Notes: generated by a model from the sequence alone, not told the origin. 63,651 nucleotides of DNA, filler included, from Lentisphaeria bacterium (GCA_041690595.1; 7 parts of 7 records of this genome joined end to end with filler, not necessarily neighbours in it); one strand, 5' to 3'. Shown: positions 33,795 through 53,707, counted from the whole stretch's first letter. A program made the numbers and translations.

Positions 33795-34552
33795 TTAGGC
33801 TTCGAGACATCGAGAAAACCCTCACGAACATTCTCGCTAGTAACAAACAGGACCCCATCATCTTGATATTCAAACCCCTGCCATTTCGGTGATTGGCCCT
33901 TGGTAATCCTTGTCGCCTTTTCTCCCAGCAGACAGACCTTCCACCCCATCGGATTGGCGACGGGGTCGCCGAACATGTCGAGGAATGTGGATTGCAGGAG
34001 CGTGTCGAGGTGGGCGAGAGCCTCGCGGCGTTTGGCCCGCAAGGCGTCCGCCGCATCCAGAATCCCCGCAATCCGCTTCTGCTCGGACAGCGGTGGGAGG
34101 GGCATCTGAAGCTCGTTGAGATCCTCGTTCCGTAGGTTATTGATGTTCGCACCCGCCGCGAGACAGGAAACCCTACGGCGGTAATGAGGCGTCTTGAAGA
34201 AGTGAGAGAAATACGCTGCGTCCACCTGTTTACAAGGTCGCAGCACTTTACAAAATGCCCCAAACCCTCCTTGAAAGTCTTCGAGTGCGCGCGCAGCTTT
34301 CCCGACAACGTCGATGCTTCCACTTGATGCAGCAATCACGATATCGTTCTTCCTCACCATTTGCTTCGGCGAGATTTTGGAAGACGGGACGTAGACCAAG
34401 TCGTCATACGTCAATCCGAATTCAGCGATGTTGCCGGCACGAAGAACAGGTAAATACCCATCGCGTTTGCTGGTGGATGCATCCTGTTTTTGATAGGTGA
34501 CACCACGGATCTGGTCCGCGATGTCGCCAACCCGGTAGAGCGTTGCCGTCAT
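33779..34552 (-). pseudogene. hsdS: Type I R-M specificity subunit, truncated in TRD2
   Basis: TRD1, LPPLSEQKRIA spacer, FLDMFGDP, then an abrupt stop at 257 aa inside the IS end. Confidence 0.85.
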
Positions 34553-36051
34553 CCCAACAACCCCTCCAGTTCCCTCCGCCCCTCGGCGATCTCCTGCTCC
34601 AACTTCGCCAGCCGCTGAACAATTTCATGCGGGGAGGCATGCTCGACCGCCTCGTATTCCACTTCCTTGTAGCGGTTGATGGAGAGGTCGTAGTCGTTGC
34701 CCGCGATCTCGGCCTTGGGCACGAGGAAGCTGCGGTCGGTGCGTTTGCGGGTAGTTTCGGCCTCGCGGTTCTGCCAGCGGGCGAGGATGTCGGGCAGGTC
34801 GCTCTTGTCGGGCTGCGGGCTGCGTTTGTCGTCCAGCGAGAAGCCGTCGGACTGCATGTCGTAGAACCAGACGTGATCGGTGCCGCCGGCTCCGGGCTTT
34901 CCCAACGGGTTGCTCTTGGTGAAGAACAGGATCGCGGTGGAGACCCCGGCGTAGGGCTTGAACACGCCCGACGGCATCGAGATGATCGCGTCGAGCCTCT
35001 GGTGCTCGACCAGGATTTGCCGCAGCGCTTTGTGGGCCTTGGATGAGCCGAACAGCACGCCGTCCGGTACGATGACCGCCGCGCGCCCACCGGTCTGCAG
35101 CAGGCGCAGGAAAAGGGCCAGGAACAGAAGCTCGGTCTTCTTCGTCTTGACGATCTGCTGCAGGTCCTTCGCGGTCGACTCGTAGTCCAGGCTTCCGGCG
35201 AAGGGCGGATTCGCGAGGACCAGCGAGAAGCGTTCGGCGTCGTCCTGATCCGACTGGGCGAGCGAATCGCGGTAGCGGATATCGGGGTTCTCCACGCCGT
35301 GCAGCAGCATGTTCATGCTGCCGATGCGGAGCATGGTGCTGTCGAAGTCGTAGCCGTGGAAGGTGCCCGAGTTGAATTTGCGGCGGCTGGCCTCGGTCTT
35401 GTAGATCGCGTCGCCATGATGCTCGCGCAGGAACTCCGAAGCGGCGATCAGGAAACCGGCGGTGCCGCAGGCCGGGTCGCAGATCACGTCCTTGGGCGCC
35501 GGGGCGGTCATGTCCACCATCAGCTTGATGATGTGGCGCGGCGTGCGAAACTGGCCGTTCTGCCCGGCGCTGGCGATCTTGCCGAGCATGTACTCGTACA
35601 GGTCGCCCTTGGTGTCGGCATCCGCCATGCCGATGCCGTCGAGCTGGTCCACCACATTCGCCAGCACGCGCGGCGTCGGCATCATGAAGATCGCGTCCTT
35701 CATGTGGTGGGAGTACGTCGAATCGCCCTCCTCCTCCGTCCCGCCATTGCTGCCGAGCGTCTTGATGAAAGGGAACACCTCGTCCTTCACCGTGGCGAAC
35801 ATCCGCTCCGGAGCGGTCTCCTTGAAACGCGACCAGCGCAGGTGGTCCTCGTCCGGTGCGAAGATCGGCTCCTCGACCGCCATGCCGGTGCGCGCCGCCT
35901 GGTACTCGCGCAGCGTCTGCAACTCGTCCAGCCGCTTGATGAACAGCAGATACGTCAACTGCTCGATGACCGACAGCGGGTTCGAGATGCCGCCCGACCA
36001 CATCGTGTCCCAGATGCGGTCGACCTTGGATTTGAGTTCACCGGTGATCAC
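34549..36051 (-). CDS. hsdM: Type I R-M methyltransferase
   Basis: IEQLTYLLF, GQFRTPRH, DPACGTAGF, NPPF, VPDGVLFG. Confidence 0.95.
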   Translation of the reverse strand: MITGELKSKVDRIWDTMWSGGISNPLSVIEQLTYLLFIKRLDELQTLREYQAARTGMAVEEPIFAPDEDHLRWSRFKETAPERMFATVKDEVFPFIKTLGSNGGTEEEGDSTYSHHMKDAIFMMPTPRVLANVVDQLDGIGMADADTKGDLYEYMLGKIASAGQNGQFRTPRHIIKLMVDMTAPAPKDVICDPACGTAGFLIAASEFLREHHGDAIYKTEASRRKFNSGTFHGYDFDSTMLRIGSMNMLLHGVENPDIRYRDSLAQSDQDDAERFSLVLANPPFAGSLDYESTAKDLQQIVKTKKTELLFLALFLRLLQTGGRAAVIVPDGVLFGSSKAHKALRQILVEHQRLDAIISMPSGVFKPYAGVSTAILFFTKSNPLGKPGAGGTDHVWFYDMQSDGFSLDDKRSPQPDKSDLPDILARWQNREAETTRKRTDRSFLVPKAEIAGNDYDLSINRYKEVEYEAVEHASPHEIVQRLAKLEQEIAEGRRELEGLLG

Positions 36052-37147: not shown

Positions 37148-38965
37148 CTACTCGCCCTCGGCCTCCCCCATTCGCGCTTCAAGTTCATCCAAGAATGGTG
37201 AGCGCCCCCAATGCATCCGGCCGCGGCCCGTATCGACATAGCCGGAATAGAGCATATAGATTTCGTCGCGGGCGCGTGTGAGGCCGACGTAGAAGAGCCG
37301 CCGGCTCTCGCGGCGAGCCGCGGGCAACTCATTGCGCCAGGGCAAACTCCCGAGATCGAGACCGACCATGATCACAACGTCGTACTCGCACCCCTTTGCG
37401 GAGTGCAGCGTCAGCAAGTTCAGATGCAGCGGAGACCCATTGCGGCCACCAAGGCTCGCAAGATCGAGATCGGCGAGCGTTCCACCGACCGCCAGAGCCG
37501 CCGACATGCGATCGACCTGCTCACGCTGATCAGCGAGACCCGGCTCAGCCGTGATCAGCGCATCAAGCATTCCTGCGCGGACTGCCGTGACGAAATCCCG
37601 AGCGAGTCCCTCATCGACGCGAAGCGACCATAGAAGCTGCGTCAGGCGCTGGGATTCATCTCGGGCATGCGCTTCTGAAAACCGGGTGCGACAAAAGCCG
37701 AGCCAACGATCGAGCAATCCACGCAACTGTGGCCGGGCCTCGCGCCAGCCACCGGAACACCACGCCGCGCAATCCTCGATCCAGCTCGTGAGCGCGACCT
37801 TGCGGTAAGGTGCCGCGGTGTCGACGCGGACAAAATCGATGCCTGCGGCAGCGGCGGCTTCCGCCACGACGTCGCCGGCTCGGTAGTCGCGGTAGAGGAT
37901 GGCGATGTCACCCAACGCGCGTCCGCGCTTGGCCGCGAGAGCAGCTGGAATGATTTCGGCGACCGCATGCGCGGCTTGCCCTTCCAGGCCATCGGCGCAC
38001 TGAACGAATTCTATGATCGCCTGGCGGTCCGGGTCGTTGGACTGATAGCCACGGACCTCGCCTAGTGCCATCTCGGATGCGCTGACGATGCGCGACGCCG
38101 AACGATAGTTAAGCTGCAACTGAACCTGCTCGACATCGTCCCGCTCGGCAAGCTCCTGCAGCAGCGCTCCGTCGGCGCCGGTAAAGCCGTAGATCGACTG
38201 GTCGGGGTCTCCGACCGCGAAGAGCCGCACGCCGCCATCGAAGGCGACGCGCTTGACGATCCGATGCAAGGCGACGCCGAGATCCTGATATTCATCGACC
38301 GCGAGCATCGGAAATTTCGCCTGAAGCAGCGGGAGCACCCAGTCGTGCTCCGAAACCAGACGCTGCCCGAAAATCACGAGATCATCGAAGTCGATCAGAC
38401 CCAGCCGTCGCAGCTCGGCCTCATATCCCTCTGCCCACGCCGCGAGTTCCCCCTCGCTGGTCCAAGCGACCGATGTTCGGTCGAGGACGGACCGTCGATG
38501 CCGTCCAAGGTCCATGGGCTTGTTGGGATGGCCGACGCCGAACAGCCGATCGCCGATGCGCTTCATTGCCTGGTCGCTCTGACGCTGCGTGGCGACGGTG
38601 AGCGGGAAGGGCACCGGGAGGTCCGCAAGCCGACCATAGGGCATGAGAAGATGCCTCAGGCAGAACCCATGCACCGTGCCGATAAAAAGATTGGGCGCCT
38701 CGCGCAGGCCCAGCCGCTCCAGTCGACGTGTCAGTTCGCGTGCGCATTCTTGGCTATAGGTGATGCATGCCGCGCCTCGGGGTACGCGCACATCCTCTGC
38801 CATAATCCGGGCGAGCTTGAGCACCAGCGTCTTCGTTTTGCCGCTGCCGGGCCCGGCCAGCACCACGCAGTTGCCCGTGGAATCGTAGGCTGCCTGCTGA
38901 CCCGGATTGCCTGCAAGATCGGCCGCTTGGGCGAGATACGCCGCGCTGACACTACGCAATGGCAT
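37148..38965 (-). CDS. gajB: UvrD-like helicase, Gabija GajB
   Basis: AGPGSGKT, VDEYQD, GDPDQSIY, NYRS, TLHSAKG, RLFYVGLTRA; ATG 38965 overlaps the gajA end. Confidence 0.8.
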   Translation of the reverse strand: MPLRSVSAAYLAQAADLAGNPGQQAAYDSTGNCVVLAGPGSGKTKTLVLKLARIMAEDVRVPRGAACITYSQECARELTRRLERLGLREAPNLFIGTVHGFCLRHLLMPYGRLADLPVPFPLTVATQRQSDQAMKRIGDRLFGVGHPNKPMDLGRHRRSVLDRTSVAWTSEGELAAWAEGYEAELRRLGLIDFDDLVIFGQRLVSEHDWVLPLLQAKFPMLAVDEYQDLGVALHRIVKRVAFDGGVRLFAVGDPDQSIYGFTGADGALLQELAERDDVEQVQLQLNYRSASRIVSASEMALGEVRGYQSNDPDRQAIIEFVQCADGLEGQAAHAVAEIIPAALAAKRGRALGDIAILYRDYRAGDVVAEAAAAAGIDFVRVDTAAPYRKVALTSWIEDCAAWCSGGWREARPQLRGLLDRWLGFCRTRFSEAHARDESQRLTQLLWSLRVDEGLARDFVTAVRAGMLDALITAEPGLADQREQVDRMSAALAVGGTLADLDLASLGGRNGSPLHLNLLTLHSAKGCEYDVVIMVGLDLGSLPWRNELPAARRESRRLFYVGLTRARDEIYMLYSGYVDTGRGRMHWGRSPFLDELEARMGEAEGE

Positions 38966-40736
38966 CGCGGATATGCTCCAGCGCCTGCCGGATATAGTCC
39001 GGACACGTATCCTCATCGACGTGCGGCGCCAGCGCCTGCGCGAAACGCCCTTTGCCAATCCGCTCAATGAGCTTGATCAGTCGCGCCTCGTCGAGGGTCT
39101 CGGTGTCATCAACCCATCCTTGGATCAGGTCGCGCGTCGCTTGACCGACCGACAGTTCCTGTTCTATGACCTCCTGCATCGCCTTAGCAAGCCCGCCGTC
39201 GAACAACTCCGGCTCAAGAGTGTTGCTGTTCACGAAATATCCTAACGCCTCCGCGCGCGCGATGACGGCGTCGGCATCCAGAGGCGTGTAATTCACGCCG
39301 TGTTCGACCAAGCGCAGGACATTAATCAGGCGACGTCGGACCAGTGGAGGCTTCGTTCCGTTAGGGTCGCGATCGGTCAGAATGACATGCGGGATGTTGA
39401 GGCCCTCGGGACCCAGCAGCTTGACGTACGGCGTGAAGTTCGTGCCGCTGGCCGAGCATACGGTGATGCCCAGCATGTCGAGTGGAATGTTCAGCGCCTC
39501 GGCGAAGGCAGGCACGAGAAACCGCTCCGCGTCGCCCTCGACCAGGATGACCCCGCGAGCGAAGAAGATTTCACCACGACTTACGTCGATGTAGCGCTGA
39601 AGGTCCGCCTCGTCGCGCTCGTCGAGCGGCGCCTTGGCAGTCGAAACGGCGATCGTCGCATTCGTTGCCGCGTCATGGCGAAGCAGCACGATCGACCGGA
39701 TCGGGGTGACGCTCGCGATGTGCGGCGAATGTGTGGTCAGGATGGTTGTGAGTGGCGGTGTTTGCTCCTCGCCATCCCCGCTGCTGCCAAGGAAATAGCG
39801 GTAAACCAGACGCTGTACGTGCGGGTGAAGGTGAGCTTCCGGCTCCTCGACCACGAAAAAGGTGTGGTCGCGCTCGCCATCTGTCACGAGCCGATCGAGT
39901 TCCAGGCTCTTGAGTGCCAGGAAAATCAGGTTCGCCGTCCCAAGGCTGGCATCTGGAATGCCGCGCGCACCATTGTCGATCAGCAGACGCAGGCTGCGCA
40001 GCAGCGCATCGACCCGCGTCGGCGCCAAGCCAAGTGTCAACGGCACCGCATGCTGCTCGCCGGCGATCGCGATCAGCCGCTCGCCGATTCGCTCGGCGGT
40101 CGCGACCACTCCTTCATGGCTGACCAGCTCGGCCTGCGCCTCGGTGACTTGCTCCTGGATTTCGGCCCGCGCGTCTTCATCGAGGGAGGTCGCCAGCTCC
40201 TCAATCAACGGCCTTAACGGCGAATTGCGCCAACTCGACAGATCCTTCTCGGCATCCCGCAGCGCGACCTGCGCGTCTAGCGGAAGCATCCGCCGCAGCG
40301 ACGGCCCAATTGACATCTCGGGATCGTCGCCGCCGAAAACGATGTACTCATAGTCGACGAGGCTCTCCGGGTCCCGCCCGAGATTGGCCTTCGGTTGGAA
40401 ACGGTAGGTGAGACGCGCAACCATCGGCGGACCCGGATCGACGATGCAGTCGTTGAGGTGCGCCATCAACCGCGGATCGCCCGTGAAGTTGGTCAGCTCC
40501 ACCGCGACCTCGATTGTTTCGCCTAGCTTGTCTTCTCCCAAGCCATCCCAGAAATGCTCAAGCCCGAGCTGCCGATCACGCTCGGAAAGTCCAGGGTCGA
40601 GGATCAGTTGCAGGGCGCGAACGAAGTTGCTCTTGCCGACCTTGTTTTCACCGACAATGACTATGCTTTCCCCGGTCTCGACGTCGATCTCCGAAAAGTT
40701 TGCGAAGTTGCTGATTCTTACCCGCGAGATTCGCAC
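38952..40736 (-). CDS. gajA: OLD-family ATPase-TOPRIM nuclease, Gabija GajA
   Basis: GENKVGKS, EEPEAHLHP, TTHSP, LVEGDAE, LTDRD; adjacent to UvrD. Confidence 0.82.
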   Translation of the reverse strand: MRISRVRISNFANFSEIDVETGESIVIVGENKVGKSNFVRALQLILDPGLSERDRQLGLEHFWDGLGEDKLGETIEVAVELTNFTGDPRLMAHLNDCIVDPGPPMVARLTYRFQPKANLGRDPESLVDYEYIVFGGDDPEMSIGPSLRRMLPLDAQVALRDAEKDLSSWRNSPLRPLIEELATSLDEDARAEIQEQVTEAQAELVSHEGVVATAERIGERLIAIAGEQHAVPLTLGLAPTRVDALLRSLRLLIDNGARGIPDASLGTANLIFLALKSLELDRLVTDGERDHTFFVVEEPEAHLHPHVQRLVYRYFLGSSGDGEEQTPPLTTILTTHSPHIASVTPIRSIVLLRHDAATNATIAVSTAKAPLDERDEADLQRYIDVSRGEIFFARGVILVEGDAERFLVPAFAEALNIPLDMLGITVCSASGTNFTPYVKLLGPEGLNIPHVILTDRDPNGTKPPLVRRRLINVLRLVEHGVNYTPLDADAVIARAEALGYFVNSNTLEPELFDGGLAKAMQEVIEQELSVGQATRDLIQGWVDDTETLDEARLIKLIERIGKGRFAQALAPHVDEDTCPDYIRQALEHIRDAIA

Positions 40737-41134: not shown

Positions 41135-41383
41135 TCAACTGGCATTCGCAGCAGAACGATCAAGCTCACGTCGAAGCGCCGCAAAGTCCGGCAGATCCTC
41201 TCGAGCCTGCCAGATATCCCGTGCCTGCTGCAGTAGTGCCCGCCGGTCCGGCTTCTCGGACTTCGCGATGAGTTGATCCACGGCCTCGCGGATCAACTCG
41301 CTCTGGGAGCGCCCGGTGCGCCGGGACAGCACACGCAGCGACTGCTGCTCAACCTCGGTCAGGTAGATCTGCGTGCGAACCAT
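41135..41383 (-). CDS. CopG/ribbon-helix-helix antitoxin-like protein (no toxin partner)
   Basis: MVRTQIYLTE...SQSELIREAVD; GGAGG RBS. Confidence 0.8.
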   Translation of the reverse strand: MVRTQIYLTEVEQQSLRVLSRRTGRSQSELIREAVDQLIAKSEKPDRRALLQQARDIWQAREDLPDFAALRRELDRSAANAS

Positions 41384-41464
41384 CTGCACACCTCCGACTT
41401 CACCATGATGTACAGATGCAATGTATACGGAGCCGCCTTGCCAGGCAAGCGCATCTCCCATAAC

Positions 41465-41594
41465 GGATTCCGGGGACAGTACACCTATAGCGCGCGCTCT
41501 CCCGGACTGATGCGCTCCGGCACCGATAATGCGAGCAGCCTCGACTGAACACTCGTCCCGGCCATCGCACACGCATTCGCACTGTCCCCGGAAC
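41465..41594. repeat. Inverted-repeat element B
   Basis: GGATTCCGGGGACAGTACACCTAT ... GCACTGTCCCCGGAAC. Confidence 0.85.
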
Positions 41595-41598
41595 GGCG

Positions 41599-41973
41599 CT
41601 ACGGCCGCTGCAGCGGGATGCCGTACTCACTCCATCGTCCATCCGATGAGACCGCCACCAGCCCCTCGATGAGCGCCTGCGCGATGATCAGCCGGTCGAA
41701 CGGATCTGAATGAATACCAGGAAGCCTTGCCGTCTCGATAACATGAGCGTCATTGATCGCGAGCAGTGTTGCGCCTGCGGCAAGGCTCTCGTCGCGAAAG
41801 CTGGCTGGTTCGACACTGAGCTTCCCCAGTCGGTGTTTGATCGCCACTTCCCAAATGCTTGCCACCGAAACCACGCAGGCGCTTGTCCCCATGAGGTCGC
41901 GCGTCTCCTGCCGCAGGCGTGAATCGCCCAGCAGCCACCACAGCATGATCTGGGTGTCCAGAAGCAGCTTCAC
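41599..41973 (-). CDS. vapC: PIN-domain (VapC-like) toxin
   Basis: LLLDT, SIWEVAIK, HSDPFDRLIIAQA; GTGA overlap with the antitoxin. Confidence 0.9.
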   Translation of the reverse strand: MKLLLDTQIMLWWLLGDSRLRQETRDLMGTSACVVSVASIWEVAIKHRLGKLSVEPASFRDESLAAGATLLAINDAHVIETARLPGIHSDPFDRLIIAQALIEGLVAVSSDGRWSEYGIPLQRP

Positions 41974-42206
41974 GGGATACCGAAGAGCCTGGCGACCTCT
42001 TCGTCGACCTGCTCGCCAAAGGCGGCATCGACATCGACAGGGCGGTCTGCCCAGACCCCCCAACCCTGTAAGCCCGGGCTCGCCGCGCAGGGAACCAGCC
42101 GCACCTGGGCCTCACCATGGCTGGCGATGATGACCTCCTCACCCGCGACAGCCGCCTTCACCAACTTCGAGAGCTGGTTCTTCGCTTCAAGCATATTGAC
42201 TTGCAT
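41970..42206 (-). CDS. Phd/YefM-family antitoxin
   Basis: VNMLEAKNQLSKLV...GEEVIIA. Confidence 0.9.
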   Translation of the reverse strand: MQVNMLEAKNQLSKLVKAAVAGEEVIIASHGEAQVRLVPCAASPGLQGWGVWADRPVDVDAAFGEQVDEEVARLFGIP

Positions 42207-43396: not shown

Positions 43397-43496
43397 NNNN
43401 NNNNNNNNNNNNNNNNNNNNNNNNNNNNNNNNNNNNNNNNTTAATTAATTAANNNNNNNNNNNNNNNNNNNNNNNNNNNNNNNNNNNNNNNNNNNN
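43397..43496. other. Artificial contig spacer
   Basis: N-run + TTAATTAATTAA. Confidence 0.99.
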
Positions 43497-45128
43497 CACT
43501 GCCTGCCAGCGGGCGTCGGACATGCGATAACCGCTGCCGGGCCCCTGATAATCGTTGGGGTCGTTGAGCGCGCTCACCACCTTGCCGTCACGCAAAATGG
43601 CAGAGGTTTGAAGGTAGTCGCCCGAGATGCGCTGGCGCAGCATTAGTAGCAGGTTCTCCGCCTCTTCCTTAAAGCCGCGTCGGGCAAGGGCGCGAACCAT
43701 GTCGACCGCCGTCAAGCCACGGTTCCGGATCGCCTCGCTGATCCGGGTAACTTCGCCAGTCGTAAAGCTTTCCGTCTCTCGGGAGCCGGAGGCGGCGGCA
43801 ACAGACAGGATCCACTCTTCAGGCACCGTGGCCAGATCCAGCTCATCGAACACGGCGGCAATGGCGCGGATCGCGCGCAATCTAAGTTTGCCCGCCTCCT
43901 CTTCCGCCAACGGGGTCAGCCCGCCATCCGCTTCAAAGTCGCGCTGGAGAACCAGATAGTCCTCGATCTCCGCGCCGTTGAAGAGGGAGGGGTTGAAGCT
44001 GTTGTCATAGTTGTGGATGGACCCGAAGCCGGAGCAAATCAGGTCTGAGCCAGCCAGCAGGTAGGGGGTGATCTTGGCCCCCACGCGGATCTCGGATTCG
44101 CTGATCCGTGTGTCGTTGCCCGAGGCGCATTCCAGTCCGAGCCAGGCCGCGATCAGGTTCTCCGCCATGAGTTCGCGCAGCCCCCCCGCCATGGAAGCTG
44201 TGAGCGGGGCGCCGTCGATACCGCCGTTCTGGGTACCTTGTACCCCCATGGCCCGTTGCAGGCACAAACAGCGAGCTTCCAAATAGAGCACCGACTGGCT
44301 GTCGTGAAAGCCCATCAACAGCTCGGCCGAAGCGCCAGACGTGCAGCGTGCCTTTATTCCGCGCGAGGCATAGGCTGCGGTCAGGAAGGCCTTGGACCAG
44401 GGCGTATCGTCGCCGTCGACGAACGCGCCCTCCGTGCCATAGACGGAGACGGTTTCCGCGTAGGAAGTGAAACCGGCCATGCCGAGCTGCAGCTCCTCCG
44501 CCTCTTCGATCGAACACTGGAAGAGCACACCTCCACGGCCCACCGCCGCGCCGACCGCGCAAGCCATGGCGTTGGCCCAGGAGTTCGAGGCGACGCGCAT
44601 CGTCGTCTCGATCTCGTCAAAGCCGAGCGCGACAGCCGTCGCGCTGTCTGCTGCGAGCTGGAGGGGATCGTCCTTCGCGTTGGTGACATGCGCCTGGTTG
44701 CCTGGAGTTCGGCGCTGGCGCATCTTGGAATAGGCAAAGGTGATCTCCAGCGAGGACATGGTGGCGACGACGGAGGCCAGCTTGGCCGGAGTCATGCCAC
44801 GGGCCAGCCGCTCAAGCTGATCGCGCGGGACGTTGATGTCGACAAGCATCCGTGCCACGTCCACCGGATCCATCGCCATTGCCTCTTCAACCACCGCCGG
44901 GTCGAGGTGATGAGCCGCGATAAAGGCGTCGAGAATATCGAACTCGGCTTCCGGTTTGCCGTCCAACTCCACCACACGGCCGTCCTCCACACGAGCGGAG
45001 GGGGCGGGATCCCAAGGGCTGTGGAATGTGGAGAAACCTGCCTCGGGATCGTCCTCGGCGAATTGATCGTGGCGCAACGGACGGGCATCCCATTCGTCGA
45101 AGCGACGCCAGCGGGGAGCGGAAGTCAT
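43497..45128 (-). CDS. B12-dependent diol/glycerol dehydratase large-subunit homologue (3' truncated)
   Basis: NQAHVTN, GFDEIETT, YAETVSVYGT, DGDDTPWSK, YLEARC, ECASGND, GDYLQTSAI. Confidence 0.9.
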
Positions 45129-45184
45129 AAGTTTCCTCCTTCCTTATCTGGCTTTGCACCTGAAGGTTGCATCGTCACGACCGA

Positions 45185-45346
45185 TCAGAACCAGCGTAGC
45201 CAGACAAGCTGCGCGATGATCAGGATAATCGCATCCCAGAAAATCACTTCTCCGATGGTAAACCAGTTGCGCCTCTTGTTTATGCGCCACAGAAAACCCC
45301 ACAGGGCGGCGGCGATGACGACAGGGGCAATACCGACCAATGTCAT
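45185..45346 (-). CDS. 53-aa two-TM membrane protein (below the ORF-track cutoff)
   Basis: MTLVGIAPVVIAAALWGFLWRINKRRNWFTIGEVIFWDAIILIIAQLVWLRWF; ATGA overlap with the ATPase stop. Confidence 0.7.
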   Translation of the reverse strand: MTLVGIAPVVIAAALWGFLWRINKRRNWFTIGEVIFWDAIILIIAQLVWLRWF

Positions 45347-46395
45347 GCCAGTCTTTCCCCGGTCTTATGATCAAAGAAGTGAAGCGCCTCTTTGGGGAAT
45401 CGGATATTGACGAGCGTGCCGCTTGAGTATTCGGCGGAATCTCCCTGCGTCCTTATGGTGAGAGCCTTCCCCTGAATCTGAAAGATCAGAAGCGTATCGG
45501 GCTCGATCAGTTCCTTCACATCGAGGGGGAGCACGACGACGTCCTCGCCTGCCCTATCGACGAGCTGAATTTGCTCGGGGCGGATTCCGAGCGTGACGGG
45601 ACCCTCAGGGCGCGCGACCGGAAGGGCGATATTGCCGGAGCGGAACACCCCATTCTCGACCACCCCGTCGATGGTATTCATGGCCGGACGCCCCATGAAC
45701 TCCGCCACGAACCTGTTCGCCGGTTGGCGATAGATCGTGCGCGGCTTGTCGCATTGCATGAGCTTGCCGTCCTTCAGCACGGCAACGCGCGTGGCGAGCG
45801 TCATCGCTTCCTCCTGGTCATGGGTGACGAAGACGAAGGTCTTTTGCAGATCCCGATGCAATCGGTTGAGCTCGGTGCGCATATGCAGACGGAGCAGCGC
45901 ATCCAGGTTGGACAGCGGCTCGTCCATCAAACAGATCTTCGGCTGCCAGACCAGTGCGCGCGCCACCGCCACGCGCTGCGCCTGCCCGCCCGAAAGCTGA
46001 GAGGGTTTACGGTGCAGATAGCTTCCGATCTGCAGGAGCTGCGCCATTTCCTTGACGCGCCGGTCGATCTCGGCGGCGCCGGCCTTACGGATGCGCAGTG
46101 GATAGGCGATGTTCTCGTAGACGGTCTTGTGGCTGTAAAGCGCGTAGTTCTGGAAGACCATTCCGATGTCGCGATGTCGCGGCGGCAAATTCGTGATGTC
46201 TTTGCCGTCGACCTCGATGCGTCCTTCTGTGGGCGTCTCGAGGCCGGCAAGAAGACGGCAGGCCGTGGTCTTGCCGGAGCCGGAGGGCCCCAACAGCACG
46301 ATGAACTCGCCGAGTTCGAACTCGAGGTCGAGCGCATCCAGCGCCAGCGTTCCGTCGGCGAACTTTTTCGTCACTTTGCTGAACAACACAGGCAT
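45343..46395 (-). CDS. ABC importer ATPase (MalK/UgpC type)
   Basis: GPSGSGKT, VFQNYALY, LSGGQ, MDEPLSNLD. Confidence 0.93.
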   Translation of the reverse strand: MPVLFSKVTKKFADGTLALDALDLEFELGEFIVLLGPSGSGKTTACRLLAGLETPTEGRIEVDGKDITNLPPRHRDIGMVFQNYALYSHKTVYENIAYPLRIRKAGAAEIDRRVKEMAQLLQIGSYLHRKPSQLSGGQAQRVAVARALVWQPKICLMDEPLSNLDALLRLHMRTELNRLHRDLQKTFVFVTHDQEEAMTLATRVAVLKDGKLMQCDKPRTIYRQPANRFVAEFMGRPAMNTIDGVVENGVFRSGNIALPVARPEGPVTLGIRPEQIQLVDRAGEDVVVLPLDVKELIEPDTLLIFQIQGKALTIRTQGDSAEYSSGTLVNIRFPKEALHFFDHKTGERLA

Positions 46396-46423
46396 GAAGG
46401 GGGCTCCCCAACGTCTTTTCGCC

Positions 46424-47242
46424 TCAACCCTTGACGGCACCGAATGTGAGGCCGCGGACGAGATGCTTCTGGACCAGAAATGTGAAGATGAGGATGGGCA
46501 ATGTGGCGACGACCGCGACGGCCGCGACCTGCCCCCACAGCGTCCCATGCGGCGTGACGAGCCCCGGAATGCCGACGGTCAGCGGCCGTCCCTCGAATGC
46601 CACGAGAATGAAGGCATAGAGGAACTCGTTCCACGACAGGAGGAAGCACAGCACGGCGGTGGCAGCGACGCCGGGCGCCGCCAACGGAACGATCACGCGC
46701 AGGAAGGCGCCGAGTTTGGAGCGGCCATCCATCATTGCCGCTTCATCGATTTCGCGTGGAATCTCGGCAAAGAAACCGCGCATCATCCATACGACGAGTG
46801 ACAGGTTGAAGCTCGTATGGGCGATGACGACCGCAAAGATCGTGTCCGTCAGACCAATCAATGTGAAGAACAGGAACAGGGGCACGGCGATGGAGATCGG
46901 CGGCGCCATGCGGGTGGTGAGAAAGAAGAAGAACAAGTCCTCTTTGCCGGGAAAATCGCTGCGGGCAAACACATAAGCCGCGGGCGCCCCAACGATGAGC
47001 GACAACGCGGTCGATGACAGCGAGATCAGCAGCGAATTGACAACGAGCGGCAAATAGTCCTTGTCGAGAAAGACCTCGGGATAGTTCGCCAGCGTCGGCG
47101 TGAAGAACCACTGCGGCTCCGCCGACAGGACATCGAGACGTCCTTTGAAGGATGTCAGCAGCATCCACAGATAGGGCGTCAGCGCGATCACCAGCACCGT
47201 GACCAGAACGCCGATCGCGAGGATCCGCCAGCTTCTGCTCAT
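46424..47242 (-). CDS. Carbohydrate ABC permease (MalG-like)
   Basis: EIDEAAMMDG EAA loop; TM pattern. Confidence 0.92.
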   Translation of the reverse strand: MSRSWRILAIGVLVTVLVIALTPYLWMLLTSFKGRLDVLSAEPQWFFTPTLANYPEVFLDKDYLPLVVNSLLISLSSTALSLIVGAPAAYVFARSDFPGKEDLFFFFLTTRMAPPISIAVPLFLFFTLIGLTDTIFAVVIAHTSFNLSLVVWMMRGFFAEIPREIDEAAMMDGRSKLGAFLRVIVPLAAPGVAATAVLCFLLSWNEFLYAFILVAFEGRPLTVGIPGLVTPHGTLWGQVAAVAVVATLPILIFTFLVQKHLVRGLTFGAVKG

Positions 47243-47252
47243 CGCTCCGCCC

Positions 47253-48212
47253 TCACACTTTGGCTGCGGTGTCAGCCGATTTCCAGTACACGGCCTTGTA
47301 GAGGATCGAACACAGGATGAGGACGACGAGATACACCATGAAGGCGACTGCCGCGCCGTAACCGAGATTCCAGCTCTTGAAGTTCACGCGATAGGCATAG
47401 ATCGACAGCAGTTCCGATATTGTGCCGGGCCCGCCGCCGGTCATGATGAAGACCTTGTCGAACTCCTTGAAGGCGTCGATGCCGCGCAGCAACAGGACAA
47501 GCGCGATGATCGGCCGCAACAACGGCAGCATGACATCGGTGAATTGCCGCCATGGACCTGCGCCATCCATGGTCGCGGCCTCGAAGGGCGCTTTCGGCAG
47601 GCTCATCAGCGCGGCGAGCATTATCAGTGTCACGAACGGGGTCCATTGCCATACGTCGATGGCAATGATCGCGGGCATCACGAGTTCGGGCGTGGAGAAT
47701 ACGGCGCTTGCTTTCTGCAGTAGGCCGAACTTGTGCAGATAGTAGGTGACCATGCCGAAATCGCCCTGCAGCAGCAGGCGCCAGATCAGGCCGACGGCGA
47801 CCGGCGCGATCATCATGGGCACCAGCAGGAGCGTGACCAGCAGGCGCTGGCGTTCGATAAAGCGCCAGATCATCCAGGCAAGAGCGAAACCGAGCACGAA
47901 CTCGATCGTGACGGTCGCGGCGACGAAACGTATCGTCAGCCAGAACGAATCCCAGAAGATTCCGTCATTGCGAATCAAGTGGCGGAAGTTGTCGAATCCG
48001 ATGAACGCGCCGTTCTGGTCCGGATTGGAGTAGCTGAGATCGGTCAGCGCCGTATAGGTCATGTAGCCGAACGGGCCGACCAGGAAGATCAGGACGAGCA
48101 AGGTCGCCGGCAGGATCAGCGGCAAGGATGCGCCATGATCCAAAAGGAATCGTCCCCGTGATGAACGGGTTGTGATGCTCCGCGAAGAAGCAGTCGTGAA
48201 ACTCATGGACAT
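47253..48212 (-). CDS. Carbohydrate ABC permease (MalF-like)
   Basis: DVWQWTPF, EAATMDGA, MTGGGPG. Confidence 0.92.
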   Translation of the reverse strand: MSMSFTTASSRSITTRSSRGRFLLDHGASLPLILPATLLVLIFLVGPFGYMTYTALTDLSYSNPDQNGAFIGFDNFRHLIRNDGIFWDSFWLTIRFVAATVTIEFVLGFALAWMIWRFIERQRLLVTLLLVPMMIAPVAVGLIWRLLLQGDFGMVTYYLHKFGLLQKASAVFSTPELVMPAIIAIDVWQWTPFVTLIMLAALMSLPKAPFEAATMDGAGPWRQFTDVMLPLLRPIIALVLLLRGIDAFKEFDKVFIMTGGGPGTISELLSIYAYRVNFKSWNLGYGAAVAFMVYLVVLILCSILYKAVYWKSADTAAKV

Positions 48213-48256
48213 CGCAATTATCTCGCCGCGGCAGGCTGAAGTACGCTCCTGGCAGG

Positions 48257-48288
48257 AAAAGGGGGAGCCGCGATCCGTGCGGCTCCCC
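48257..48288 (-). terminator. Intercistronic hairpin after the substrate-binding gene
   Basis: GGGGAGCCGC/GCGGCTCCCC stem followed by a short T-run on the minus strand. Confidence 0.6.
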
Positions 48289-48294
48289 TGAGCC

Positions 48295-49704
48295 TCACTT
48301 GGGAGGGAACTTCAACGGCGCGCACGAGCCGAGCAGCGCCGAGATTTCCTGGGCCGCCGTATCGAGTGCCGCCTGGGCTGACTTCTCGTCCGCGAGGTAG
48401 GAGGAAAGTTCCCGCGTCAGAATGTCGGTCATCTGCGGGGACTGAGGTAATGTCGGCTTGGGCTTCGCCACTTCGTTGGAGGCCATGGACGCCTTGGAAT
48501 ACGGAAGCTCTTGTACATCGGCAGAGGCATAGACGTCCGGGCGCGCCGTCGCACCGCCATTGAGGTGCTGATTCAACTGCTGCTCGTAATCCATCATCCA
48601 CTGAATGAAGAGGTAGGCTGCTTCCTTGCTCTTCGAAGAGGCCGGGATGAGATATGTCCACCCTTCGACCTGGGCGACCTTGCCGCCTTCGCCTTGAGGC
48701 ACGATGTCGAAGCCCATCTTGCCGACGACGGTGGAGGCGGATTCGTCGACGGCAACGGCGTAGGTCGCATCGTTCCACATGATCAGCTGGGCGACCTTGC
48801 CCTGCTGCATCAGCGCCATCACGTCGTCCCAGAAATAGTTGAGCGTGTCAGGCGGAGAGAATTCCATCAGGCTCTTGTAATACTCGGTGGCCGCGACCGC
48901 CTGCGGGCTGTTGACGATGACGGGGCCGCATTCAGAGCCCGTCTTCGCCTCAAGCATGTCGCCGCCAAAGGAATACAGGAAGTTCAGCCACTCATACCAC
49001 AGCGCCTCGTGACGTTTGCCCTGAAGAGCGGTGCCATAGAGTCTCTGATCGGGACGCGTGAACCATTCGGCGATATCGCGGTACTGCTGCCAGTCCGTCG
49101 CCGGCGCAAGATCGTATCCGTACTTGGCCTTGAACCCCTGCGCTTCCTTTTCGTCCGACAGGAGATCGGAACGATACCACATGTACATGCTGAGGGCAGT
49201 GAAGGGAAAACCGTAGACTTCGCCGTCATACCAGGAGATTTCCTTCCAGAGCCCCTGGTAAAGTTGCTCGTCGGGCTTGAACTCCGGGTCGCGCAGCTCT
49301 TCGTCGTTCATGAAGACGTCGAGCGGCTCGACATGGCCATTGGTGACGAACCTTCCGAGTTCCCGGTGCGGTTGAATGATGAAATCGTAGCGTCCGCGCC
49401 TGGAGTTGAGATCGAGCATCACCTTGTTCACGGCTTCGGAATGCTCGTACATCTCGATCTCGATCGTAATTCCGGTTCTCTTTTCGAACTCCGGCGCAAG
49501 TTCCTTCATGGCCTCAAGCGGCGGAAGCGCCTCGCCGATCGTTCGTATCGTTGTGCCCTTGTAAGGAGCCGCGGCCTCCTCCAGCGACCAGGCCTTGGCC
49601 TGGGGGGCGTGCCAAATGGCTGCCAAAGCGTTCAACGCGGCAGCGCCAGCCAGCAACAGAAGGCCGCGCCGCATCAAGCCATGTGTAAACATGTTCGTAT
49701 CCAC
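48295..49704 (-). CDS. ABC substrate-binding protein (CUT1 sugar/polyol family)
   Basis: Signal peptide; EFEKRTGI, YGFPF, MWYRSDL, QGKVAQ. Confidence 0.88.
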   Translation of the reverse strand: MDTNMFTHGLMRRGLLLLAGAAALNALAAIWHAPQAKAWSLEEAAAPYKGTTIRTIGEALPPLEAMKELAPEFEKRTGITIEIEMYEHSEAVNKVMLDLNSRRGRYDFIIQPHRELGRFVTNGHVEPLDVFMNDEELRDPEFKPDEQLYQGLWKEISWYDGEVYGFPFTALSMYMWYRSDLLSDEKEAQGFKAKYGYDLAPATDWQQYRDIAEWFTRPDQRLYGTALQGKRHEALWYEWLNFLYSFGGDMLEAKTGSECGPVIVNSPQAVAATEYYKSLMEFSPPDTLNYFWDDVMALMQQGKVAQLIMWNDATYAVAVDESASTVVGKMGFDIVPQGEGGKVAQVEGWTYLIPASSKSKEAAYLFIQWMMDYEQQLNQHLNGGATARPDVYASADVQELPYSKASMASNEVAKPKPTLPQSPQMTDILTRELSSYLADEKSAQAALDTAAQEISALLGSCAPLKFPPK

Positions 49705-50080
49705 TTCGTTATGAGTTTCAGCCTCTATGAACCGACTTCACCCAACCGATGCGTTCATGGCGACAGGTCCGTTCCGGTTTCTTCGCAGTGAATTCTTGGT
49801 CTGCCCAACCTTTGGATCGGGACACGCCGCCTAGTGAGGCATTCCGCTGGGCCCTTCTCATGTCGAGGAAGCACGCCTGGAACGCGGCACGGTGATTTCC
49901 GAGGAAACGATCCGGCGCTGACGGCTCTTCAGCGAATTCTTCCTGTGCCCGAGACCGCCTGCGCGAGGGTTTTCATAACCGCCATTGTCTTCCTCCCCTT
50001 TTGTGTTGCGGAATTCGTCAGGACACTGCCGGAGCTCGAGGCTCTCTAATTGCAGTCCTGGCGATGGTACGGCTCCGCCA

Positions 50081-50180
50081 GCATATCCCTTGCTGTGCTC
50101 CCAGATGCACAAACTACCTGTACAAGGCATATCCCTTGTTTTAAGCAAAACTTACATCGAATGCTTATGTATGGGATATT
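50081..50180. promoter_or_regulatory. Candidate operator half-sites in the divergent promoter
   Basis: GCATATCCCTTG at 50081 and 50127; inverted GGGATAT near 50173. Confidence 0.35.
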
Positions 50181-50201
50181 CCCCATTCAGTATAAGCCGG
50201 A

Positions 50202-51077
50202 ATGCATATTATCTTTGAGATAGGGCAAGACATGCTGAAGGACATGGATGGGCAAGGCGCTTTGGGCAGAAATCTCCTTTCCCAGCCGGGATGGTATACA
50301 CTACTTGGAGATCTGGTTTCGCAGATAGGTGAACCGGACTTTCCGGACGCACTGTCCCGGGCGCTGAGCCACTTGACGCAGTTCGCCTACACGGTGACCT
50401 TCGCCTACAATGGACCGGACGTTCCGCTTTGCCTGCACCACACCTTCCCACCAAAACAATATGCCATCCACGTCAGCCAGTACGAGATCGGGCCGTATTT
50501 GCTCGATCCGCTCTACAAGGCTTCCACGGACGGGGTGAGGTCTGGTGTCTTCCGCCTCGGCGACGTAGCGCCCGACCAGTTCTACAAGAGTGAGTACTAC
50601 CGCACCTACTATGTGCAGACCGGCCCGGTGGACGAGATTGCAATGTTTATTCCGGGCAACGGAAGCTGGACGATCGTGACCTCACTGATGCGGCCTCATA
50701 GCCATCCGGCGTTTTCGGCTCGCGAGCTGCGCACTCTTCGCTGCGTCGAGCCCCTGCTCGGAAGAATCGCACAGGTTCATTGGCGTACAGATCAGCGGCT
50801 GGAGGCGGTGAATCCCGTACAGGATAAGGAAATGCTGCGGTGCATCGTGCAGGAGGCGCTGACGCGTCATGGCATGCCACTGCTGACACCGAGGGAAACC
50901 GAAGTGGTTGGGCTGGTGCTGCAGGGACACTCGTCGGAATCAATTGCCAACATCCTCGGCATATCTGCTGGCACGGTGCGCATCCACCGCAAAAACATCT
51001 ACGCCAAGATGCGAATCTCCTCGCAGCGCGAACTCTTCTCGATCTTCATGCAGTCGCCCGTTTATAGAGGTAGCTGA
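50202..51077 (+). CDS. LuxR-family transcriptional regulator
   Basis: LTPRETEVV...GTVRIHRKNIYAK HTH; PYLLDP sensor region. Confidence 0.9.
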   Translation: MHIIFEIGQDMLKDMDGQGALGRNLLSQPGWYTLLGDLVSQIGEPDFPDALSRALSHLTQFAYTVTFAYNGPDVPLCLHHTFPPKQYAIHVSQYEIGPYLLDPLYKASTDGVRSGVFRLGDVAPDQFYKSEYYRTYYVQTGPVDEIAMFIPGNGSWTIVTSLMRPHSHPAFSARELRTLRCVEPLLGRIAQVHWRTDQRLEAVNPVQDKEMLRCIVQEALTRHGMPLLTPRETEVVGLVLQGHSSESIANILGISAGTVRIHRKNIYAKMRISSQRELFSIFMQSPVYRGS

Positions 51078-51219
51078 TGGTCCGACATACTGCTGAACAT
51101 CGATAATCGGGCTTTCGATGGTCGTGTACGCCGCCGGCCATACCTTTCGAATGGTGCCTATCGGTTGCGGTCCCGCCGTCAGAGCGGCACTATGAGCGGA
51201 CTTTGCAGGGGGGGGGATC

Positions 51220-51864
51220 ATGACCGCCAAAGTTATCAGCATCACGCAGCAGAAGGGCGGCGTCGGCAAGACGACGCTCACGGCGCATCTCGCCGTCCTC
51301 TGGGCAAAACGGGGTCGCACCGTCGCCGCGCTCGACGTCGATCCGCAAGGCAGCCTCACCGATTGGTACGAGGCGCGGACAAGGACCCTCGGGCCGGATG
51401 GGACGCCGGGGCTGACAGTGCGTCCACCTTCCGCCGCGCGGGTTGCGACGGACGTGGACCGGCTTGCCCGCGATCACGATATCGTTCTGGTCGACTGCCC
51501 GCCGCATGCCGCAACGGAGGCGCGCTCTGCCATCCGTCGCGCCTCTCTCGTGATCGTCCCGGTGCAGCCGAGCCCGCTCGACCTGTGGGCAACGCGGCCC
51601 ACGCTGGAGCTCGCGACGAAGGAGGACCGGCCGGTCCTGATGGTCCTCAACAGGGCCTCGCTCCGCACGCATCTGGCGGCGACCATGATCACCCGCCTTG
51701 GTGAGTTCCGGGTTCGGGTCGCCCGGACGGCGCTCGGCAACCGAGTTCTCTTTGCCGAGAGCATGGAGCGCGGCCTGACGGCGCACGAGGTACGGCCCCA
51801 CAGCCTGGCCGCGGAGGAGATGCGTAAGCTTGGAAACGAGATCCTGAGGCGCGTCCCGAGCTGA
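51220..51864 (+). CDS. Orphan ParA-family ATPase
   Basis: KGGVGKTT, DVDPQGS, DCPP, PVQPSPLD. Confidence 0.88.
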   Translation: MTAKVISITQQKGGVGKTTLTAHLAVLWAKRGRTVAALDVDPQGSLTDWYEARTRTLGPDGTPGLTVRPPSAARVATDVDRLARDHDIVLVDCPPHAATEARSAIRRASLVIVPVQPSPLDLWATRPTLELATKEDRPVLMVLNRASLRTHLAATMITRLGEFRVRVARTALGNRVLFAESMERGLTAHEVRPHSLAAEEMRKLGNEILRRVPS

Positions 51865-52070
51865 CGCAAGGGAACGCCGATCCGCCGATTCGAATTACGG
51901 GCGCTCCCCAAGAATCAATTCCCCGCGCCAGCATGGCGGCATCATACACATCGGAGGTGGGCGCCTCGCCCACCATCAATGCCTCTTCCGGATTCTCGTG
52001 GTTGGTCATACAGAACCTCAGACTATGCGACCTACGATCCGGAGTCGCACCGGCAGTTCGACAGCCAGCC

Positions 52071-52758
52071 CTAGCTCCGCCAGTTCAGCCCGGCAGTTTG
52101 GCGCAGACGCTCTGTCGCGAAATCTATGAACGCACGGATTTTCGGTGAGGCCCGGCGCCCCTCGATATGGACCAGATGGATCGGTAGCGGTTCGGGCTCC
52201 CAGTCTTCAAGAATCGTCCGCAGCGTTCCGGCTTCCAGATCGGGGCCGATTTGGTAGGAAAGCGCCTGGCTGATACCCCAGCCACGCCGCGCGATCTCGA
52301 TGGCGGCGGCCACGCTGCTGACGCTGAGCCGCGGATCTACCCTGACCGTCTGTTCGCCACCTGGCCCGAAGCGCCATTGCCGGCCGGAATTGAGTGGCGC
52401 AACCGACAGGACACGGTAGGAAGCCAGCTCGGCCGGATCCTGCGGGTAGCCCCGCTCAGCGAAATAGCCTGGGGCACCGCAGACGACGCGCCGGACCTGC
52501 CCGACCCGGATGGCGGCAAGGCCGGACGAAGGCAGCGAGCCGATGCGCACAGCGATATCGAAGCCTTCCTCGACGATGTTCACGACCCTGTCGATCATCA
52601 GCACGTCAGCGCTCACGCCAGGATGGCGGTCGAGAAACTCCGTCAGGATGGGAGAAACATAGATCCGCCCGAATTCCTGCGGGCATGTGATTCGAAGCTG
52701 CCCTACGGGCGTCTGGGCCGCGCCGGAGGCCGCTTCGTCAGCAGCCTGGAGATTGGCC
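52071..52758 (-). CDS. LysR-family regulator (5' truncated)
   Basis: EEGFDIAVRIG, SPKIRAFIDF; frame open to the contig edge. Confidence 0.88.
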
Positions 52759-52954: not shown

Positions 52955-53707
52955 CACTTTGAGAGGGCCTGTCGAGGCTGAGGCCGGTGGGATTGCGAAT
53001 ACGTGGGGGATGGCGAAGGACCAGTCGCCGTTCGGAGAACGCCTCCCACTTTGAGAGGGCCTGTCGAGGCTGAGGCCGGTGGGATTGCGAATACGTGGGG
53101 GATGGCGATGGACCNNNNNNNNNNNNNNNNNNNNNNNNNNNNNNNNNNNNNNNNNNNNNNNNNNNNNNNNNNNNNNNNNNNNNNNNNNNNNNNNNNNNNN
53201 NNNNNNNNNNNNNNAGTCGCCGTTCGGAGAACGCCTCCCACTTTGAGGGGGCCTGTCGAGGCTGAGGCCGGTGGGATTGCGAAGACGTGGGGGATGGCGA
53301 TGGACCAGTCGCCGTTCGGAGAACGCCTCCCATATCGGGGGCATGGTGAGGCTGAGGCCGGTGGGATTGCGACTACGTGGGGGATGGCGATGGACCAGTC
53401 GCCATTCGGAGAACGCCTCCCATATCGGGGGCATGGTGAGGCTGAGGCCGGTGGGATTGCGAAGACGTGGGGGATGGCGATGGACCAGTCGCCGTTCGGA
53501 GAACGCCTCCCACTTTGAGGGGGCCTGTCGAGGCTGAGGCCGGTGGGATTGCGAAGACGTGGGGGATGGCGATGGACCAGTCGCCATTCGGAGAACGCCT
53601 CCCATATCGGGGGCATGGTGAGGCTGAGGCCGGTGGGATTGCGAATACGTGGGGGATGGCGATGGACCAGTCGCCGTTCGGAGAGCGGCTCCCCACTTTG
53701 AGGGGGC
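52955..53707. repeat. Tandem array of 90/92-bp REP-like units (at least 7; scaffold gap 53115-53214)
   Basis: About 73-bp core GAGGCTGAGGCCGGTGGGATTGCG...TCGCCRTTCGGAGAACGCCTCCCA with two recurring linker variants. Confidence 0.92.

Follow-up and report, generated by a model that had tools for sequence, protein, structure and literature searches.

The region 43497..51077 of the analyzed DNA of a Lentisphaeria bacterium (GCA_041690595.1) carries a gene for a B12-dependent diol/glycerol dehydratase, cut at codon 544, together with the genes of an ATP-binding cassette (ABC) importer and a divergent gene for a LuxR-type regulator. The whole stretch, 63,651 nucleotides in length, is referred to below as the window. 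At about even confidence, we propose that an operon for import-coupled catabolism is represented here by its regulator, its importer and codons 1-544 of its catalytic gene, and that its substrate is other than plain propanediol or glycerol. The dehydratase gene is a cut copy within a known clade, for which a substrate of another kind is plausible, with partial support from the comparative gene context.

The 544 stop-free codons at 45128..43497 (minus strand) contain no frameshift and encode the large subunit of a diol/glycerol dehydratase. The protein matches Pfam PF02286 (Dehydratase_LU) with 708.8 bits against a cut-off of 25 and NCBIfam NF011979 with 802 bits against a cut-off of 788, the match extending over profile positions 2-540 of 552. 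Its best match of solved structure is the glycerol dehydratase alpha subunit 1iwp_A (E 6e-165), and the diol dehydratase alpha subunit 1dio_A also matches (E 5.9e-157). The protein was aligned with two sequences from annotated plasmid records, PduC of Salmonella (L083) and DhaB1 of K. oxytoca (L084), and PduC numbering is used throughout. Residues Q141, H143, E170, E221, T222, Q296, D335, S362 and F374 are unchanged with respect to PduC, and the changes are S299G, V300I, S301D, C302G, I303A, Q336T, T337R, Y364F, S365G, M373S and A375N; the loop 299-304, SVSCIG in PduC, reads GIDGAP. The metal ligands Q141, E170, E221, Q296 and S362 (as listed in the available part of the review PMC7674605) and the catalytic H143 and D335 are all found in the window protein and are invariant in 77 members of its clade. 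With the catalytic apparatus intact, the reaction is almost certainly that of the family, in which a vicinal diol bound to the metal undergoes a radical 1,2-hydroxyl shift.

An earlier note on this DNA had claimed that the catalytic motifs of such enzymes are kept while the substrate pocket is altered. The translation indeed contains NQAHV, DEIETT, YAETV, QNGGIDG, GNDTR and CSGFG. The PduC motifs that the note gave, QNGSVSC and NDQ, were confirmed by alignment with Salmonella PduC, and the pocket residues do differ from those of PduC (QNGGIDG/NDTR versus QNGSVSC/NDQT). The pocket is therefore not that of PduCDE, as D301, G302 and T336 are found instead of Ser301/Gln336. The role of these two positions in shaping the substrate range, also stated in the note, agrees with the portion of PMC7674605 at hand, according to which Ser301 and Gln336 meet the C3 hydroxyl of glycerol, and their replacement by alanine (S301A, Q336A) reduces inactivation by glycerol and changes the chain-length range, admitting longer diols (Yamanishi 2012, cited therein).

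Relatives of the protein were found at 504 loci in a scan of one genome per species, and the best 80 of these 504 (70-93% identity) were examined. All 80 belong to Alphaproteobacteria, and eight are from Mesorhizobium, each with the QNGGIDG pocket. The motif QNGG[I/V]DG is present in 80/80 relatives, followed by NDT in 41, NDA in 34 and NDC in 5, and this constancy indicates that the altered pocket is not a product of chance. Among the 77 full-length members G299, D301, G302, A303, G365 and N375 are invariant, position 336 is occupied by Thr, Ala or Cys, and position 337 by Arg (73) or Lys (4). The G304P change is invariant in at least 77 of 78 rows, the window included. Altogether 35 positions are diagnostic of the clade, and the window protein carries the full signature (G299, D301, G302, A303, P304, R/K337, G365, N375). 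Among family-wide cluster representatives, the classical enzymes have QNG[S/A][V/I]SC with NDQ, a second group of long fused proteins has QNGSISC with NDA, and Asp at position 301 occurs in the QNGGIDG clade alone. A quick maximum-likelihood tree places the clade (78 rows) on a long branch with support of 99, apart from both PduC/DhaB and the second fused group.

The open reading frame (ORF) exceeds 700 residues in 77/80 relatives, which are alpha-beta fusions of about 755 aa (range 750-780 aa). The nearest relative, at locus L002, is 754 aa long and 93% identical to the window protein, and pairs with it in the tree with support of 88, below the level marked with a star. In L004, a chain of 755 residues contains both Dehydratase_LU and Dehydratase_MU (87.4 bits), its stop codon is overlapped by a 139-residue Dehydratase_SU gene, and a short-chain dehydrogenase gene comes next. 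Gene content over the 80 loci was counted by tblastn, since 11 of the 80 dehydratase ORFs, and some ATPases too, were missing from a GC3-filtered gene set. The gamma subunit was detected in 76/80 loci, the dehydrogenase in 67/80 and the reactivase alpha subunit in 0/80. The partner dehydrogenase resembles acetoin/2,3-butanediol reductases (PDB 1geg, 6xex), although its 193.9 bits with the BudC model do not reach the cut-off. At L030 (10001..12022), the dehydratase ORF is 673 aa long though the locus continues, which may reflect a frameshift or an unfused form.

The features of the studied region, as they lie in the window, are the following:

43397..43496, no strand: artificial contig junction, N44-TTAATTAATTAA-N44; the DNA to its left is a different contig
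43497..45128, minus strand: adenosylcobalamin (AdoCbl)-dependent diol/glycerol dehydratase, codons 1-544 (alpha part), cut by the contig end and lacking a stop codon
45343..46395, minus strand: ABC ATPase of MalK/UgpC type (ABC_tran 122 bits, OB_MalK 30 bits), start set at the Met of MPVLFSKV
46424..47242, minus strand: ABC permease 2 (BPD_transp_1, 61.6 bits)
47253..48212, minus strand: ABC permease 1 (BPD_transp_1, 57.1 bits)
48295..49704, minus strand: periplasmic solute-binding protein, 469 aa (SBP_bac_1, 120 bits)
50083..50182, no strand: candidate operator region, a GCATATCCCTTG pair and the near-palindrome GGGATATTCCC
50202..51077, plus strand: divergent LuxR-family regulator (GerE, 59.4 bits)

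The window is a chain of small contigs joined by six N44-TTAATTAATTAA-N44 linkers and not continuous DNA; the source assembly is an 8.1-Mb draft of 99 contigs, 97% complete. All of the above genes lie on contig C84 (window 43497..52758, 9262 bases), in which the dehydratase occupies bases 4-1617. Position 43497 is the first base of this contig and not a gene end, and a fragment of an aldo/keto reductase gene to the left of it belongs to another contig and is no true neighbor.

The neighborhood is as the earlier note described it: a SBP_bac_1 binding protein, two BPD_transp_1 permeases, a MalK-type ABC_tran ATPase and a divergent GerE/LuxR gene, and a search of the 97%-complete genome for microcompartment shell genes (PF00936) gave none. 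All parts of an importer are present, i.e. a family-1 binding protein, the two permeases and a MalK-like ATPase with a C-terminal OB/TOBE domain. We take the system to belong to the CUT1 (sugar-type) family. The binding protein is the ligand-defining part of the importer, and its orthologues (at least 40% identity) were found in 15/80 related loci. Its nearest solved relatives, all weakly similar, are a sugar binder (5iai, 3.5e-33), a trehalose/maltose binder (1eu8) and a sorbitol binder (4rya). The regulator, with orthologues in 16/80 related loci, has a C-terminal GerE helix-turn-helix, and its N-terminal part of about 220 residues gave no Pfam match even at E up to 1, including no autoinducer-binding domain. 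By its predicted domains it is a LuxR-family DNA-binding protein, and nothing marks it as an acyl-homoserine-lactone receptor.

Two copies of GCATATCCCTTG lie 46 bp apart (50083-50089 and 50129-50135) and the near-palindrome GGGATATTCCC is placed at 50173-50182, just upstream of the regulator gene. Thus, 4 of the 13 GG[GA]ATAT/ATAT[CT]CC matches of the window fall within the 100-bp stretch 50083..50182. The motif columns are kept in at least 13 of 14 aligned intergenic regions between regulator and binding-protein genes of loci sharing the layout of the window (type A, see below). We infer that 50083..50182 may be the operator for the LuxR-type protein. A search of the contig against Rfam at E up to 0.1 gave no match, whether to a riboswitch or to anything else.

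The constant core of the related loci is formed by the dehydratase, gamma and dehydrogenase genes, and the surroundings vary, with at least three layouts. Type A, that of the window, comprises LuxR, a binding protein of about 476 aa, two permeases, ATPase, dehydratase, gamma and dehydrogenase; it was found in 15 loci, mostly of Phyllobacteriaceae, plus L002. In type B (18 loci by the binding-protein criterion), a different binding protein (433 aa) and permeases are interleaved with the dehydratase genes, which are followed by genes for the dehydrogenase, an APH-family kinase, a class-III aminotransferase homologue and GntR; on an annotated Shinella plasmid the intergenic gaps of this operon are -4 to 35 bp. 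Type C (11 loci by a strict criterion, more by parts) contains an isochorismatase-type amidohydrolase, a FabG-like dehydrogenase, a second kind of APH kinase and a PotD-like binding protein accompanied by ABC genes of its own, often together with an acylating aldehyde dehydrogenase. In L057, L059, L061, L070 and other type-C loci the latter is of the EutE/PduP kind (418.8 bits with the AdhE N-terminal model) and bears an unexplained N-terminal extension of about 137 residues. In the tree, the type-A loci form a group of 18 rows with support of 96 that lies within the type-B operons, and the sister of this group is a Bradyrhizobium locus with kinase and lyase.

Several genes of these sister operons handle nitrogen compounds. 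A class-III aminotransferase of the phospho-lyase type occurs in 20/80 loci, an APH-family kinase in 33/80, the PotD-like binding protein in 19/80 and the isochorismatase-type amidohydrolase in 23/80. The best matches of solved structure for the type-B lyase homologue are the phospholyase 5g4i (2e-110) and the human ethanolamine-phosphate phospho-lyase 6tor (5e-107), the next being a gamma-aminobutyrate transaminase (5e-57). In the single-chain NCBIfam families PRK06148 and PRK06149, the kinase corresponds to the N-terminal part and the lyase to the C-terminal part, which argues that the two act jointly. No solved relative of the APH kinase was found at E up to 0.001, nor could the kinase be tied to the mycobacterial aminopropanol kinase of solved structure.

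An independent parallel is offered by the mycobacterial RMM2 loci, in which, according to the accessible text of PMC4207490, diol dehydratase homologues are accompanied by a dehydrogenase, a phosphotransferase, a class-III aminotransferase and GntR, the same set as in the type-B operons. The sister layouts thus lend indirect support to a nitrogen-bearing substrate and, together with the RMM2 parallel, make an aminated diol the single most attractive candidate. A functional analogy is offered by ethanolamine ammonia-lyase (EutBC), which uses AdoCbl for radical chemistry and has a vicinal amino alcohol as its substrate. It belongs to a different protein family, and the window protein matches Dehydratase_LU only.

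Judged from the alignment, we read the rebuilt loop 299-304 and the changes at 336/337 (Gln-Thr to Thr/Ala/Cys with Arg/Lys) as a putative pocket for a larger, polar or charged C3 side of the substrate. A nitrogen-bearing diol or aminopolyol is favored over a plain polyol, and plain 1,2-propanediol is an unlikely substrate in our view. Glycerophosphoethanolamine, glyceryl ethers, dihydroxypropanesulfonate and S-glycerylcysteine were considered as well and set aside.

In the operon that we propose, the LuxR-type protein would control expression and the sugar-type ABC system would import a scarce polar compound with a vicinal diol. Two hydroxyls of this substrate would be held on the active-site metal through Q141, E170, E221, Q296 and S362, and a radical 1,2-hydroxyl shift employing H143, E170 and D335 would yield an aldehyde or ketone, after which the co-conserved dehydrogenase may reduce or oxidize the neighboring group. 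The enzyme would work without a reactivase or a microcompartment, with AdoCbl derived from salvage and a PduO-type adenosyltransferase.

A bolder version, which we put forward only tentatively, is that the QNGGIDG clade constitutes a new class of B12 radical dehydratase, which would act on a charged vicinal diol bearing nitrogen (an amino-diol or aminopolyol) recognized through Asp301/Arg337, in reactivase-free aerobes, and feed a route of amino-alcohol kinase and phospho-lyase. If so, the diol dehydratase and the phospho-lyase would jointly dismantle one amino-polyol, and the layout of the window would be a variant for a related imported compound.

A number of observations weigh against a substrate other than plain propanediol or glycerol, or against the completeness of the operon. 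Asp301 is always accompanied by Arg/Lys337 (n=77), and with this constant pairing it may be charge-paired and not free for an amine. In five loci of Ancylobacter type (L019, L024, L025, L026 and L028, from Ancylobacter and one Xanthobacteraceae genome; about 12.7-16.2 kb), glpK is convergent on gamma. Its product scores 666.7 bits against a cut-off of 590, and after glpK come a 596-aa binding-protein-like gene (SBP_bac_8, weak, E 2.4e-4) and two ABC ATPases; with its glpK and glycerol-type ABC system, such a locus looks like a glycerol uptake operon. The solved relatives of the window's binding protein bind neutral sugars or polyols, though the resemblance is weak. The genome of the bacterium itself contains no orthologue of the kinase, phospho-lyase, amidohydrolase or acylating aldehyde dehydrogenase, so that the link to nitrogen rests on the homologous operons. 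Furthermore, the beta part, gamma and dehydrogenase are absent from the assembly, and an intact operon in this organism is inferred from contigs of other sequencing runs. CbiC was not found in the genome, and activity would then need cobalamin from outside. No assay of any clade member was found in the literature searched, nor any mention of the locus tags mll6721, mll6722 and mll6723.

The two suggestions of the earlier note concerning the substrate are thus partly sustained. The idea of another substrate gains from the pocket change being fixed throughout the clade and from the nitrogen genes of sister operons, and loses by the Asp301-Arg/Lys337 pairing and the glpK loci. The amino-alcohol proposed by the note agrees with the nitrogen-handling genes of the sister operons, but the kinase and phospho-lyase orthologues are missing from the operon type of the window and from its genome.

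Among the alternatives, the strongest is that the protein is an ordinary glycerol/1,2-propanediol dehydratase, in which the changes at 301 and 336 and the subunit fusion slow mechanism-based and oxygen inactivation in aerobes that have no reactivase. We regard this as possible, albeit on the unlikely side. In the K. oxytoca enzyme, as reported in the part of PMC7674605 available, S301A lowers glycerol inactivation from 1.15 to 0.22 per min and Q336A to 0.081 per min. The review also reports slower inactivation of an engineered alpha-beta fusion. The DDR reactivase domain was found neither in the genome of the bacterium nor in any of the 5/5 clade genomes searched whole, nor in the 80 loci, while the same search was positive in 2/2 pdu/dha records used as controls. 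Reactivase genes are likewise reported to be lacking in Mesorhizobium, Mycobacterium and Hyphomicrobium, as far as the consulted text of PMC4777399 goes. Taken together, the lower inactivation of the 301/336 mutants and the genomes without reactivase allow the pocket change to be read as robustness, which is a further argument against a new substrate. GlpK adjoining gamma in the Ancylobacter group and the NCBI family name, propanediol/glycerol dehydratase, point the same way. However, the natural change at 301 is to Asp and not to a small neutral residue, and it is coupled to Arg337 and to a loop rebuilt over six residues. The same pocket occurs alongside three unrelated importers with high-affinity binding proteins, and such importers seem needless for small, freely diffusing diols. 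A kinase with a phospho-lyase, or an amidohydrolase, is co-operonic in many loci. Finally, the fused homologues of M. smegmatis, which belong to a different group, are not induced by glycerol according to the available excerpt of PMC4881515.

Another explanation, which we consider improbable, is that the dehydratase works at a late step, its substrate being a small neutral diol formed inside the cell: an amino-diol or hydroxy-ketone would be imported and, where the kinase and phospho-lyase are present, deaminated by them, the dehydrogenase would next reduce it to a vicinal diol, and only then would dehydration follow. With the layout of the window, the importer would bring a hydroxy-ketone or the diol itself. 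The dehydratase-gamma-dehydrogenase core is constant (dehydrogenase in 67/80 loci) and the kinase and lyase are optional, as this order of events would have it, and the likeness of the dehydrogenase to acetoin/2,3-butanediol reductases also fits. The phospho-lyase reaction yields a carbonyl compound, which again speaks for it. On the other hand, late action leaves the conserved Asp301, Arg337 and rebuilt loop unexplained, and the order of reactions is not readable from gene order.

That the gene is a truncated remnant, devoid of partner subunits and functionless in this organism, is very improbable: the ORF does stop at the contig edge, the beta, gamma and dehydrogenase genes were not found in the 8.1-Mb assembly, and the family is missing from related genomes, but contigs of three other runs continue 320 to 3882 bp past the cut, the 544 codons are free of stops and frameshifts, and the contig ends are unique, with L002 collinear up to the cut.

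The gene is cut by the assembly and not by biology. Four runs (X1, X3, X4 and X8) were compared across the cut. Run X1 provides a 4530-bp contig reaching 3882 bp beyond 43497, run X3 a 16,931-bp contig that shows 13 differences over 1904 bases and reaches 387 bp beyond, and run X8 extends 320 bp beyond. In one of the three continuing runs, no differences were found over 103 compared bases. The coverage of X8 is thin here, in pieces of 150 to 600 bases, which would account for the contig break. Neither end of C84 recurs elsewhere in the assembly or carries a repeat or insertion element, and the nearest locus, L002, is collinear with the window up to the cut (87% nucleotide identity). As the contig ends at codon 544, the beta and gamma parts are absent from the assembly. 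A tblastn search of the assembly with the L004 sequences gave no orthologue of the beta domain, gamma or the partner dehydrogenase, the dehydrogenase query hitting distant short-chain dehydrogenase/reductase paralogues only (at most 39% identity). Pfam profile searches of the genome for beta and gamma were also empty, but their controls matched nowhere and tblastn was used instead. The downstream beta, gamma and reactivase genes, whose recovery the earlier note had advised, were consequently not obtainable from the window or the assembly. Runs containing half or more of the sampled words are labelled as plant, rhizosphere, soil and manure metagenomes.

The locus corresponds to neither of the classical gene contexts. 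A pdu-type context was not found, as the genome has no BMC domain and no DDR, while the control record L083 has both, plus PduF. Neither was a dha-type context, with dhaT, reactivase and dhaR not on the contig, while L084 shows the reference layout. As for the cofactor, the genome encodes a PduO-type adenosyltransferase (163.8 bits) and has two cobalamin riboswitches elsewhere, and the lack of CbiC suggests that cobalamin is probably salvaged.

The dehydratase family was found in 0/40 related genomes (14 of the same order and 26 of the same class), and horizontal gain of the locus appears likely. In a check for mis-binning, the composition of C84 gave no sign of foreign origin and resembled that of the genome at large, the tetranucleotide correlation with the large contigs (0.958) lying close to the median of 0.957 (rank 52/99). 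The same contig carries a gene for a ParA/MipZ-type ATPase (51220..51864, plus strand), which hints at a plasmid- or island-borne contig, and the substrate-binding half of a LysR regulator (52071..52616, minus strand), cut by the other end of C84.

Compared with known systems, PduCDE/PddABC (Salmonella; K. oxytoca 1dio) belongs to the same fold family, with 46.7% identity to Salmonella pduC and shared metal-binding and catalytic residues. It differs in the pocket loop 299-304 and at positions 336, 337, 365 and 375, has an unfused beta subunit and is accompanied by PduGH, shell proteins and PduF. DhaB123 of Klebsiella (1iwp), the best solved match with 50.9% identity, shows the same pocket differences as PduC and a context of dhaT, dhaR and reactivase (L084). 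The second fused group (P0005, 726 aa; P0006, 749 aa) also consists of long single chains with a small residue in place of Gln336 (NDA), but it keeps Ser301 and Cys302 (QNGSISC) and branches with the classical enzymes, not with the QNGGIDG clade. We assume that P0005 and P0006 are mycobacterial.

The closest systems in print are the fused 'glycerol dehydratases' of Mesorhizobium loti, M. opportunistum and Hyphomicrobium (Liu 2010, via the available parts of PMC7674605 and PMC4777399), which resemble the QNGGIDG clade in their alphaproteobacterial origin, the alpha-beta fusion, the small subunit encoded next and the lack of reactivase. An alpha-beta fusion with a "slightly different" active site and no reactivase genes has already been reported for Mesorhizobium, Mycobacterium and Hyphomicrobium (Liu 2010, cited in the accessible text of PMC4777399). 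The altered active site of fused enzymes is therefore already published. In the sections of PMC7674605 and PMC4777399 available, the Mesorhizobium and Hyphomicrobium enzymes are treated as glycerol dehydratases of biotechnological interest, and no partner dehydrogenase, importer layouts, amino-alcohol link or substrate test is named.

Other features of the window were also observed. Contig C83 carries a complete Gabija-type defence pair (37148..40736, minus strand; GajA of 594 aa, 770 bits, and GajB, a 639-aa ORF, 784 bits, with PADLOC models), near which, with an unassigned 301-aa gene in between, lies a type I methyltransferase gene (34549..36051, 636 bits). On the same contig, at 41135..42063 (minus strand), adjacent ORFs of 145 and 154 aa resemble by eye a ribbon-helix-helix antitoxin and a PIN-domain toxin. 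On contig C85, a 90-bp unit is repeated in tandem at 53215..53707 (5.3 copies, 91% match), and a unit of 182 bp is scored for the array as well. It abuts the N100 gap 53115..53214, and the long ORFs on both of its strands are artefacts of the array.

To our knowledge, the established substrates of B12 diol dehydratases are only glycerol, 1,2-propanediol and a few close analogues, and these enzymes have been studied almost wholly in fermenting enterics. The window itself, as one truncated copy, is of modest weight. The clade to which it belongs, one of soil and water bacteria, is large (504 loci in the one-genome-per-species scan); its rebuilt pocket is fixed, a dehydrogenase is its constant partner and a reactivase is lacking. 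Should the pocket serve to resist inactivation, the clade would be a natural template for the robust glycerol dehydratases sought by engineers. If the clade acts on a new substrate, this would extend B12 enzymology by one reaction, give a function to genes labelled as propanediol/glycerol dehydratase in many rhizobia, and could explain the presence of diol dehydratase homologues beside amino-alcohol genes in the mycobacterial RMM2 loci.

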